Origin: Escherichia coli 042 | Lineage (GTDB): Bacteria; Pseudomonadota; Gammaproteobacteria; Enterobacterales; Enterobacteriaceae | Assembly: GCF_000027125.1 (NCBI RefSeq) | Contig: NC_017626.1 | DNA length: 64,000 nucleotides | Strand: one strand, 5' to 3' | Shown: piece after piece, positions 16,050 to 47,416 of the stretch | How the letters are laid out: every line of letters begins with the position of its first letter | How positions within the stretch are numbered: position 1 is the stretch's first letter | Translations under genes and position numbers: made by a program | Notes under the pieces: generated by a model | The model's database searches: none | Told to the model about the DNA's origin: nothing | What the model saw: only the letters and a program-made list of their open reading frames with translations

Positions 16050-16101
16050 TAGCATGCTTCCAGTTTTCTCAGTCAGAGACTGAGCGTTAATCGAAATTCG
16101 G

Positions 16102-37589: not shown

Positions 37590-38483
37590 ATGAACATAGT
37601 GATCACCGGAGGGACGGGATTAATTGGTCGCCATTTGATTCCACGTTTGCTGGAGCTGGGCCATCAAATCACGGTAATGACGCGTAACCCGCAGAAAGCC
37701 AGTTCTGTTCTCGGCCCTCGGGTGACACTATGGCAAGGGCTTGCCGATCAAAGCAACCTCAACGGCGTTGATGCGGTAATCAACCTGGCCGGAGAACCGA
37801 TTGCTGATAAACGCTGGACTCACGAGCAAAAAGAGCGTCTCTGCCAAAGCCGCTGGAATATCACGCAAAAACTGGTCGATTTGATTAATGCCAGCGACAC
37901 GCCGCCGTCGGTACTCATTTCCGGCTCGGCAACGGGCTATTATGGCGACTTAGGTGAAGTGGTGGTTACCGAAGAGGAACCGCCGCATAACGAATTTACT
38001 CATAAACTCTGCGCCCACTGGGAAGAAATTGCCTGCCGGGCGCAAAGTGACAAAACGCGAGTGTGCCTGCTGCGTACCGGCGTAGTGCTGGCACCGGATG
38101 GCGGTATTCTCGGTAAAATGCTGCCGCCGTTTCGTCTTGGCCTGGGCGGGCCGATTGGTTCCGGTCGGCAGTATCTGGCCTGGATTCATATTGATGATAT
38201 GGTCAACGGCATTCTCTGGCTGCTCGATAACGAGCTGCGCGGGCCATTTAATATGGTTTCGCCCTACCCGGTACGCAATGAACAATTTGCCCATGCGCTC
38301 GGTCATGCGCTGCATCGCCCGGCCATTTTGCGCGTCCCCGCGACCGCTATTCGACTGTTAATGGGCGAATCTTCAGTACTGGTATTAGGCGGTCAACGCG
38401 CCTTGCCTAAACGGTTGGAAGAAGCGGGTTTTGCGTTTCGCTGGTACGATTTAGAAGAGGCGCTGGCGGATGTTGTTCGCTGA
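37590..38483 (+). CDS. yfcH: NAD-dependent epimerase/dehydratase family protein YfcH
   Basis: 297-aa ORF; N-terminal Rossmann GxxGxxG (ITGGTGLIG). Confidence 0.88.
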
Positions 38484-38530
38484 TGTGGTCTACTGCAAAC
38501 ATCCGCCAGTTAATTCCCGGTGTTACAGGA

Positions 38531-39421
38531 TTAGTGGTTTTGCGCGATAAGATCGTCTGGCGAAAGTCGGGTCAGCGTCAGGATGACTTCGTAGTCAAAT
38601 CCTTTTTCCAGCATCTCCTGAGCAATACGCAGGGCTTCTTCGTGTTTGCCCTGCATTGCGCCTTCTTCACGTAATCTGTCAGCAATGGTCATCAGTTTCT
38701 CCTTTTCTTGTGGTGCGCGTTCCGCTATCTCACCAATAAATGCACGGAAACGCTGGGCATCCCCCGTTTGTAATACGTAATTAAACAGGGCTTTTAGCTG
38801 TCTGTCATTAGTGTTCCCTGTAACTAGCAGCGAAACAATTTGGTCGACTAATCCCAACAGATCGCGCTGACGAATATGTTTCTGAATTAACTCCAACAGC
38901 GCCATTTTGCGATGTTGCATAATCTCGTCATCCGGCACCACGGTAATATCCACCAGCGGAAAAGCCGATGAATAAATTTTGCGGGCAATCGCAGGCTCGG
39001 CAAATTCATCAAGCCAGCAGAGTGAATATGGATAAGGGCTTCTGCAACCATGATAAAACAGCATCGGGATCACTAATGGAAGCTCTTTATAGCCCGCATC
39101 AAGATGGTTTTGCATCGCCGCAATGGAATAGCGCATCATGCGAAAAGCCATTAATTCCTCTGGCTTACTTTGGTGCTCTATCACCACATAAATATAACCC
39201 GCTCCCTCCTGCGTTTTCACAGACCACAAGAGGTCGGAATAATATTGCCGCAGGTCTTCATCAATAAAACTGTTTGGTTCCAGTTTAAGCGTTGTTAAAT
39301 CACACAGTTTGCGCAGCGGCGCGGGAAGATGAATATCAATAAAATCCCGCGCGGTGTCTGGATGGCGTAAAAAAGATTTAAATACCGCATCATGCGGCGT
39401 GGAAGTTGTCGATATTGTCAT
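38531..39421 (-). CDS. rpnB: Rpn-family recombination-promoting nuclease / transposase_31-like protein (RpnB, YfcI)
   Basis: 296-aa ORF; PD-(D/E)xK-type N-terminal region (YIYVVIEHQ); recognised as YfcI/RpnB. Confidence 0.85.
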
Positions 39422-39616
39422 GGCGTTCCGTCACCCCTCAAATTTAAGATGACGCGACAATAACCACGATTTACACCCAATGCAGCAGGCAGTTTTTATC
39501 TTTGGACAGCGAATTCAGAAGTATTTTTAGCGGACTGCAACTTTTACATTTCAGCGGAAGCGGACTCGCAAATTCCCCATGAAATACTCCGGCAGCGTTA
39601 GCCACCGGAGGGGGAA

Positions 39617-40390
39617 TTATTTCAGCGAACCTTTAAGGAACTGTTGCAGACGAGGACTTTGCGGGTTACCGAATAACTGTTCTGGCGCGCCCTCTTCTTC
39701 TATTTTCCCCTGATGGAGGAAAATGACGTGAGTAGAAACATGGCGAGCAAAGCCCATTTCGTGGGTCACCACCACCATGGTTTTCCCCTCTTCTGCCAGT
39801 TGCTGCATAATACGCAACACTTCGCCTACCAGTTCAGGATCGAGCGCCGAGGTAGGTTCATCAAACAGTAAAACTTCCGGTTCCATCGCCAGCGCCCGCG
39901 CGATAGAAACACGCTGTTGCTGACCACCGGACAGGTGCACCGGGTATTTCCCCTGCGCACGTTCGTCTATCCCGACTTTCGCCAGATACTTCACCGCCCG
40001 CTCGCGCGCTTCCTGCTTGCTCAGGCCCAACACCTGAATCGGCGCTTCCATGACGTTTTCCAGCACCGTCATATGGCTCCAGAGATTGAAGTGCTGGAAT
40101 ACCATCGTCAGGCGTGTGCGCAGTAAGCGCAGCTGATTTTTATCGGCGACTTTGAGTTGACCATCTTTGTCGCGCACCAGATTGATCGTCTGGCCATTGA
40201 CCACGATCGACCCTTCACTCGGTTTTTCGAGGAAGTTAATGCAGCGCAGAAAGGTACTTTTCCCCGATCCCGACGATCCGATGATGCTTATGACATCTCC
40301 GGCATTCGCTTGCAGTGAGACCCCTTTCAGCACTTCGTGTTCGCCGTAGCGTTTGTGCAAATCGATAACGTTTAATTTATTCTCGGACAT
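39617..40390 (-). CDS. hisP: Histidine/basic amino acid ABC transporter ATP-binding protein
   Basis: 257-aa ORF; Walker [13 protein letters not shown] signature LSGGQQQR, Walker [12 protein letters not shown]. Confidence 0.96.
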
Positions 40391-40630
40391 CGTATTCTCA
40401 GTGCGTTGAAGAAGGTTTCACATGCTGCAACCAGCGTTTTTCCGCTCTGCGAAAGAGGCTGATCAGGACATAAGAGACCCCTTTCAGCACTTCGTGTTCG
40501 CCGTAGCGTTTGTGCAAATCGATAACGTTTAATTTATTCTCGGACATCGTATTCTCAGTGCGTTGAAGAAGGTTTCACATGCTGCAACCAGCGTTTTTCC
40601 GCTCTGCGAAAGAGGCTGATCAGGACATAA
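40317..40630. repeat. Perfect 157-bp direct tandem duplication (2 copies: 40317..40473 and 40474..40630) spanning the hisM 3-prime end / hisP 5-prime end
   Basis: Character-by-character comparison shows both copies identical; the 4 nt after copy 2 (gaga) equal the first 4 nt of the unit (junction microhomology). Confidence 0.95.
40398..40547 (-). CDS. Chimeric micro-ORF created by the duplication: first 24 codons of hisP fused in frame to the last 24 codons of hisM (49 aa)
   Basis: Manual translation from the duplicated hisP start (40545..40547): [49 protein letters not shown]-stop; carries the duplicated native hisP ribosome-binding context. Expression unproven. Confidence 0.45.
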
Positions 40631-41271
40631 GAGATGATTAAATAGAGCACCGCGGCAATGCCGAAGGCGGTAAAAGGTTGATACGTGGCGGCGTTAATAT
40701 CGCGGGCTATTTTCAGCAGATCCGGCACCGTGGCCGTAAACGCCAGCGCAGTAGAGTGCAGCATCAGGATCACTTCGTTGCTGTATGCCGGTAACGCAAT
40801 ACGCAGCGCAGAAGGCAAAATAATGCAGCGATACATTTTAAAGGTCGAGAAGCCATAGGCTCTGGCGGCTTCGATTTCCCCATGCGGCACTGAACGGATC
40901 GCTCCGGCAAAAATCTCGGTAGTGTAAGCGCAGGTGTTGAGCGTCAGCGCCAGCACGGTACAGTTCAGGCCACTGCGAAAAAAGGCGTTAAGGAACTCGG
41001 TTCCCTTAACAATTTCCAGCGTGTACATGCCGGAATAGAACACCAGCAACTGAACATACAGCGGCGTACCGCGAAAAATATACGTAAATAACCAGATTGG
41101 AAACTGGATGTATTTATTACTTGAGACGCGACCAATCGCCAGAAACAGCGCCATGACTCCGCCTATCACTACCGACAAAATCAGCAGCCACAGGGTGATC
41201 GCCACGCCAGTAAAGCGATAACCGTCGGTCCACAGCAGTGGTTTCCAGTATTCATGTAAGATTTCGATCAC
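40555..41271 (-). CDS. hisM: Histidine ABC transporter permease
   Basis: 238-aa ORF; polytopic permease; start overlaps hisQ stop. Confidence 0.96.
   Translation of the reverse strand: MIEILHEYWKPLLWTDGYRFTGVAITLWLLILSVVIGGVMALFLAIGRVSSNKYIQFPIWLFTYIFRGTPLYVQLLVFYSGMYTLEIVKGTEFLNAFFRSGLNCTVLALTLNTCAYTTEIFAGAIRSVPHGEIEAARAYGFSTFKMYRCIILPSALRIALPAYSNEVILMLHSTALAFTATVPDLLKIARDINAATYQPFTAFGIAAVLYLIISYVLISLFRRAEKRWLQHVKPSSTH

Positions 41272-46965: not shown

Positions 46966-47416
<451 letters not shown>

Follow-up and report, generated by a model that had tools for sequence, protein, structure and literature searches.

Gene neighborhood of rpnB

In the 64,000-nucleotide stretch of Escherichia coli 042 DNA analyzed here (the window), rpnB lies between yfcH, with which it is convergent, and hisP, in a gene order (yfcH, rpnB (b2305), hisP, hisM, hisQ, hisJ) that is the same as in K-12 and also matches that of strain GN06156. 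The hisQ and hisJ genes are located further upstream, past hisM, on the same strand as rpnB, and all annotated neighbors of rpnB are housekeeping genes. The features of the locus are as follows.

38463..38509: 12-bp perfect inverted repeat spanning the stop of yfcH where this gene and rpnB converge (inverted-repeat search)
38483: end of yfcH, convergent with rpnB (ORF list)
38531..39421, minus strand: rpnB coding sequence, full-length RpnB_L of 296 aa with an ATG start (ORF list, Pfam, TIGR01784, K-12 identity, RefSeq name)
38531..38692, minus strand: internal ORF of RpnB_S, M244 to H296, 53 aa (translation)
38699..38704, minus strand: Shine-Dalgarno sequence AAGGAG, 6 nt before the internal ATG at 38692-38690 (read from the sequence)
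38795..39400, minus strand: Transposase_31/PD-(D/E)xK nuclease domain, aa 8-209 (Pfam envelope)
39422..39616, minus strand: hisP-rpnB spacer, 195 bp
39617..40390, minus strand: intact hisP, 257 aa (ORF list, ortholog annotation)
40317..40634: perfect 157-bp tandem duplication over the hisM/hisP junction (Tandem Repeats Finder)
40398..40547, minus strand: in-frame chimeric ORF of 49 aa, HisP(1-25) joined to HisM(215-238) (translation)
40555..41271, minus strand: intact hisM, 238 aa (ORF list, ortholog annotation)

The inverted repeat between yfcH and rpnB likely functions as a bidirectional terminator, and a further terminator-like hairpin (39610-39587), recovered in a terminator scan, directly follows the hisP stop. 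The promoter of rpnB is presumably situated in the hisP-rpnB spacer, in which a consensus scan detected no promoter-like site. An earlier preliminary description of this DNA had placed rpnB immediately downstream of hisP, which is accurate, as only this spacer separates the two genes. Elsewhere, the window contains a tandem array of five 91-nt units (46966-47416, 96% matches), four of which match the Rfam family naRNA4 (RF02564, 77-83 bits) and which represents a REP-type repeat cluster, and a match to the Rfam nuoG RNA motif (RF01748) at 16057-16099 on the minus strand, with 50 bits against a gathering score of 33.

Domain architecture of RpnB and its embedded antitoxin

The rpnB product matches the Pfam profile Transposase_31 (PF04754) over residues 8-209 (E=2.1e-91), spanning profile positions 1-202 of 203 with a score of 305 bits against a cut-off of 21, and it likewise exceeds the threshold of the NCBIfam Rpn family model TIGR01784 (190 bits versus 52). 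These matches bear out the assignment of this ORF, in the preliminary description, to the Transposase_31 or PD-(D/E)xK-type Rpn proteins. NCBIfam contains no equivalog model specific to RpnB, and the RpnA equivalog NF007361 scores 469, under its cut-off of 583, as expected since RpnB is a paralog of RpnA. In an alignment with the RpnA and RpnB proteins of K-12, the residues D11, D63, E82, Q84, and R94 and the PDDE motif (163-166, including D165) are invariant. The ortholog in K-12 and in thousands of other genomes carries the RefSeq label “recombination-promoting nuclease RpnB,” and the protein of the window differs from that of GN06156 by a single amino acid. The domain scores above the thresholds, the catalytic residues, and the internal start place the protein within the Rpn family, and its high identity to K-12 RpnB, along with its position between yfcH and hisP, marks it as the RpnB ortholog. 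By every feature that can be tested in the sequence, it is thus the ordinary, already characterized rpnB of E. coli, orthologous to that of K-12.

All rpn genes of E. coli specify, in addition, a small protein corresponding to the C terminus (RpnS), which is translated from an internal start mapped in RpnA at M244 (Zhong et al., PMC10400941). In the window, the conserved K240-E241 codons themselves encode the AAGGAG of the Shine-Dalgarno sequence, and K240, E241, and M244 are all invariant between RpnB and RpnA. The numbering used for K-12 RpnB_S, in which “D29” (PMC10400941) corresponds to residue 272 only if the count begins at M244, points to the same start. Hence, the internal start of the RpnB_S antitoxin is intact. 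A consensus scan found no promoter-like site just upstream of this start; an internal promoter is reported in the literature. Other rpnB alleles of E. coli are 12 nt longer (903 nt), which fits the 4-aa repeat variation described for RpnS. A potential homology of the RpnB_S helix to PPR proteins was also considered; the only hits to PDB sequences were designer PPR repeat proteins, and these matches were rejected on account of per-domain i-Evalues above 30 and a total inflated by repetition.

Rpn proteins are now described as toxin-antitoxin or antiphage genes with a nuclease that is restrained by RpnS, the product of internal translation (PMC10400941). RpnL is blocked by RpnS, which generally exceeds it in abundance, and RpnB_S specifically blocks both the growth inhibition and the SOS induction that depend on RpnB_L (PMC10400941). 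The plasmid-borne RpnP2 protects against T-even phages, and it is for this protein only, and not for RpnB, that an antiphage function has been shown (PMC10400941). Mg-dependent DNA endonuclease activity and toxicity and SOS induction blocked by the cognate RpnS are known only for RpnA and RpnB of K-12. PADLOC v2.0.0 returned no match in the window, with a library dated 2023, the year of the Rpn defense paper, such that the family may not be included in it. Judged by its conserved residues and architecture, RpnB_L of the window would be a PD-(D/E)xK DNA endonuclease with RpnB_S as its cognate antitoxin, the activity of this particular allele being a prediction.

Across complete E. coli genomes, rpnB is present in 4,755 of 5,426 (88%), always on the chromosome and in a single copy. 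An RpnB protein identical to that of the window occurs widely. The yfcH-rpnB-hisP segment aligns as one colinear stretch, with at least 80% coverage, in 4,748 of 5,425 genomes. The gene is missing from about 12% of the complete genomes; in one such strain, EH01-18-04-A (L017), a 25-nt relic matching positions 38953-38977 of the window persists between yfcH and hisP. As this relic derives from the interior of the gene, the absence of rpnB in that strain reflects a secondary deletion rather than an empty insertion site. In the complete genome of strain YZ22PE68 (NZ_CP171869.1), rpnB is interrupted by an IS1A insertion.

This distribution bears on the possibility that rpnB is itself an active transposase or insertion sequence whose mobility rearranged its neighborhood. 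The Pfam and NCBIfam names (“Transposase_31”) suggest as much, the gene shows presence/absence polymorphism, being absent from about 12% of genomes, and the GC content of rpnB (46.4%) is lower than that of the window (52.1%). However, no terminal inverted repeats, direct repeats, or target-site duplication flank the gene; it is found once per genome, at a fixed site on the chromosome, and a tblastn search recovered it as the sole Rpn paralog within the window. The one rpnB-negative state with a relic represents a deletion, and the published analysis of the family judged Rpn proteins not to be transposases (PMC10400941). rpnB accordingly lacks the features of an insertion sequence or an autonomous transposase, and we consider this explanation extremely improbable.

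Tandem duplications at the hisM/hisP junction

Upstream of rpnB, Tandem Repeats Finder reports an array with a period of 157, 2.0 copies, and 100% matches, the only array in this neighborhood. The two copies (40317-40473 and 40474-40630) are identical and are followed by the microhomology GAGA (40631-40634), so that, as read from the sequence, a 4-bp GAGA direct repeat bounds the duplication; its junction sequence is GATCAGGACATAAGAGACCCCTTTCAGC. Alignment with K-12 and GN06156 shows the array as a clean insertion of 157 bp, and over 25 kb these 157 bp constitute the sole structural difference from the best-matching genomes. The preliminary description had noted a 157-bp tandem duplication with microhomology about 0.9 kb from rpnB, and both the structure and the distance are as it stated: 896 bp separate the rpnB start codon (39421) from the first base of the repeat (40317).

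The duplication creates the short chimeric ORF, which opens at the duplicated hisP start codon (40547-40545) and closes at the second copy of the hisM stop, 7 nt ahead of the true hisP ATG. As the chimera stops at this distance from the hisP start, hisM, hisP, and the stop-to-start coupling geometry are all preserved. NCBI annotates the 49-aa chimera as a hypothetical protein, WP_404854071.1.

An assembly artefact, which the preliminary description had allowed for, would render the proximity to rpnB biologically meaningless, and the same would hold for a sequencing artefact. The 100% identity of the copies could be read in this manner, as could a draft contig (L020) that ends inside the second copy. 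Moreover, all 5,426 complete E. coli genomes lacked the junction, both by megablast with a 44-mer whose halves are each too short for the 28-nt word size and by blastn with a 52-mer; it was also absent from GTDB species representatives and JGI metagenomes, with the positive control finding 14 contigs. Taken alone, these empty junction searches suggested a private event or an artefact, a view that was overturned by an exact look-up of the chimera in NCBI and ENA: the 49-aa protein is present on 13 public contigs, the longest of which reaches 5.24 Mb. Its occurrence in several independent assemblies rules out a one-off assembly artefact. The junction or the chimeric ORF is recovered in multiple independent assemblies of both archives, on contigs of up to 5.2 Mb, in two backgrounds that are 2.4% apart and have their own SNPs in both copies, and additionally in a metagenome scaffold (L023). 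We therefore regard the artefact explanation as having a vanishingly small probability.

The carriers differ in their relationship to the window. One of them (L021) is 100% identical to it over 12,150 nt, indicating that it belongs to the same clone. In contrast, a contig of a B2-type lineage (L022) carries the same duplication at 5914-6231 of that contig and differs from the window at 288 of 12,150 positions (2.4%), which are evenly spread. Here, the copies do not differ from one another, and two lineage-specific SNPs appear in each of them; the nearest lineage SNP is 25-31 nt from the junction, making import by recombination implausible. The 4.1-kb flanks of this contig are 100% identical to complete genomes (Z0117EC0036 and A0 34/86) and 99.9% identical to LF82, all of which are without the 157 bp. 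An independent origin in the B2-type lineage is the economical reading of these sequences; the 157-bp duplication arose independently at least twice. Another assembly, LR134238.1 (L019; a 5.28-Mb NCBI assembly with an identical RpnB protein), does not have the 157-bp duplication; at 1310-2757 of that contig, small indels, which are probably sequencing errors, split hisM and hisP into several short gene calls.

When the chimera was used for a profile search, a further protein, P0001, was recovered on two ENA contigs; in this protein, HisP(1-52) is joined to HisM(214-238). It originates from a perfect 241-bp tandem duplication with a 2-bp microhomology in another B2-type lineage (L024:5915-6398), the hisM-side end of which is displaced by no more than 1 nt from that of the 157-bp events. 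At least three independent tandem duplications, two of 157 bp and one of 241 bp, thus share a hisM-side breakpoint at codons 213-215. This count comes from a protein-based search that sees only chimeras called as genes, and the profile search yielded only proteins 26-83 aa in length, full-length HisP not being among them, such that chimeras of greater length may have escaped it. No out-of-frame chimera with a tail from hisM was present among 106 HisP N-terminal fragments, the remainder of which are frameshifted hisP calls. Many database “proteins” are HisP N-terminal fragments of this type and leave the hisP frame at residues 21-28, next to a G4 run that abuts the hisP-side breakpoint (~40314-40325, hisP codons 22-26, AAAGGGGTC), and they look like products of homopolymer sequencing errors or pseudogenes.

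Recurrence of this kind might be ascribed to positive selection, for instance, for an altered dosage of HisP or for the 49-aa peptide, rather than to a mutational hotspot, with rpnB being irrelevant in either case. Each of the three detected events is in frame, their chimeras end in an identical stretch of 25 residues, the geometry of a stop 7 nt before the ATG is preserved, and the clone of the window is represented by more than 10 contigs. Yet the variant is very rare, with no instance in the 5,426 complete genomes, and selection for a peptide would not be expected to fix a breakpoint to within 1 nt. The in-frame bias is itself subject to the scope of the protein-based search, which may have missed out-of-frame or long chimeras. 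We judge selection to be a quite unlikely cause of the recurrence.

Relationship between rpnB and the duplication

The preliminary description raised the possibility of a causal link between the nuclease and the adjacent rearrangement, and its premise is sound: overexpression of RpnB increases RecA-independent recombination by 19-fold and induces SOS (PMC5350276). Mutation of the residues D11, D63, E82, Q84, and R94 and of the PDDE motif in RpnA abolishes or alters the stimulation of recombination, toxicity, and SOS induction, and the authors of that work speculate on substrates for microhomology-mediated assembly (PMC5350276). One may envisage that RpnB, acting preferentially near its own gene, breaks hisM, and that microhomology-mediated repair on the sister chromosome, by template switching or break-induced replication, generates the duplication. 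A site-specific break would be expected to fix the hisM end and leave the other free to vary, as is seen here, and rpnB lies close by in every carrier. Were this the case, Rpn, as a domesticated nuclease, would favor a particular target on the chromosome and promote microhomology-mediated rearrangement in its vicinity.

Several lines of evidence run counter to this scenario. Neither action in cis nor action at specific sites is known for any Rpn protein, and RpnA cuts DNA without detectable sequence specificity (PMC5350276). A quadruple deletion of rpnA, rpnB, rpnC, and rpnD leaves basal RecA-independent recombination unchanged (PMC5350276), and RpnB_L is in any event restrained by RpnB_S (PMC10400941). 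The breakpoint motif does not recur near rpnB; a search of the window, including the borders of the gene, found only the site itself. The genomic record points the same way: none of the 4,755 rpnB-positive complete genomes has the junction, and the yfcH-rpnB-hisP segment is colinear in 4,748 of 5,425 genomes. All three independent duplication events did occur in rpnB-positive genomes, but with rpnB at a prevalence of 88%, this co-occurrence carries almost no weight. The proximity itself is real, and it counts in favor of a link: as a rough guide from coordinate arithmetic, a random point in the window has a chance of only about 4% of lying this close to rpnB. The association was, however, noticed after the fact.

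Further observations come from contigs that differ in the duplication. The suggestion that strains with the duplication might differ in their rpnB sequence is not borne out. The nucleotide sequence of rpnB in three carriers (L020, L021, and L023) is identical to that of the window, and a contig without the duplication (L018) matches the window with 0 mismatches across ~7 kb that include rpnB, its hisM-hisP junction being normal. Conversely, the B2-type carrier L022 has the duplication together with a different RpnB allele (4 aa changes). The duplication therefore does not track the sequence of rpnB, and the three events are too few to relate it to the presence of the gene; the proposed causal link finds no support in the comparative evidence and is disfavored by the literature. 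Both an RpnB-induced break repaired through microhomology and the narrower proposition that the breakpoint at hisM codons 213-215 is a site-specific lesion made by an RpnB that prefers to act in cis near its own gene are, in our estimation, very improbable.

We instead hold it to be highly probable that rpnB is an ordinary gene-within-gene, that its 0.9-kb proximity reflects the ancestral gene order, and that the duplication is real and recurrent and bears no causal relation to it; we infer that RpnB made no contribution to the rearrangement. Thus, rpnB occupies its normal place, already carries a name, and has been studied experimentally; the data offer no grounds for tying the duplication to it. 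With rpnB already known, the recurrent hisM breakpoint is the only new element of the locus, and no publication on a tandem duplication of hisM/hisP emerged from the literature search. The locus is suited to asking whether chromosomal Rpn nucleases contribute to spontaneous rearrangement, and the published deletion data suggest that they do not.

The hisM breakpoint and a proposed mechanism

Within 300 nt on either side of the junction, there are 306 microhomology pairs of at least 4 bp, including 24 of 6 bp or longer. Four in-frame alternatives with microhomologies of 8, 8, 7, and 6 bp are not on record. As longer microhomologies in the vicinity went unused, the shared hisM end is not predicted by microhomology length. 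On the other side, the nearest GAGA upstream of the hisM end is exactly 157 bp away and the next is at 392 bp; once the hisM end is fixed, the reuse of the same hisP end is unsurprising. The GC skew of the plus strand is -0.043 and consistent across the window, a lagging-strand composition implying that the replication fork passes hisM, then hisP, and then rpnB.

In E. coli and Salmonella, RecA-independent tandem duplications between short homologies form when replication slips or switches template. In the present case, template switching or slippage during replication would most likely start at the fixed hisM site (codons 213-215), which could be a point of stalling or dissociation of the nascent lagging strand. 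The strand would then re-pair at the nearest upstream GAGA, giving a 157-bp head-to-tail copy, which would be tolerated because hisM, hisP, and the geometry of translational coupling stay intact. The duplication is a recent and recurrent microhomology-mediated event, for which slippage is the mechanism that we favor. The hisM breakpoint may represent a local hotspot, and some site-specific initiating lesion is possible. Secondary structure was also considered: folding of the single-copy unit as single-stranded DNA, in search of a structure that would unite the two GAGA sites, gave only a weak 6-bp long-range pairing (CTTATG/CATAAG) and a weak hairpin 12 nt from the breakpoint, neither of which is convincing. 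Regardless of how it is initiated, the breakpoint shared by the two 157-bp events and the 241-bp event offers a small natural system for the initiation of short-homology duplications in wild E. coli.

Comparison with known systems

The closest counterpart of the gene is K-12 RpnB (YfcI, b2305), which has 96% amino acid identity and an equal length of 296 aa. The catalytic residues, the internal start at M244, and the AAGGAG Shine-Dalgarno sequence are common to both proteins, as are the neighbors yfcH, hisP, hisM, hisQ, and hisJ. The two proteins differ by 12 substitutions, of which 10 fall within residues 272-295 (38534-38608), inside RpnB_S, in agreement with the hypervariability reported for that region. 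K-12 also differs in being without the 157-bp duplication that the window carries 0.9 kb from rpnB.

K-12 RpnA (YhgA) is more distant, with 66% identity over the full length, but has the two-product architecture in common with the RpnB of the window, and D11, D63, E82, Q84, R94, the PDDE motif, and M244 are all found in both. It is encoded at a different locus (feoC/bioH), and RpnB has 4 extra residues relative to it (GAMQ, 254-257) at the site where 4-aa repeats vary. The antitoxins of K-12 RpnA and RpnB do not cross-protect (PMC10400941). Of the two, RpnA alone has been subjected to nuclease biochemistry.

The duplication, on the other hand, has its counterpart in the short-homology slippage duplications. 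Simple slippage does not predict that one breakpoint should be used in three events despite the availability of 24 longer microhomology pairs (at least 6 bp), whereas the structure of the 157-bp event itself, a perfect head-to-tail copy bounded by a 4-bp direct repeat, fits this class of rearrangements.
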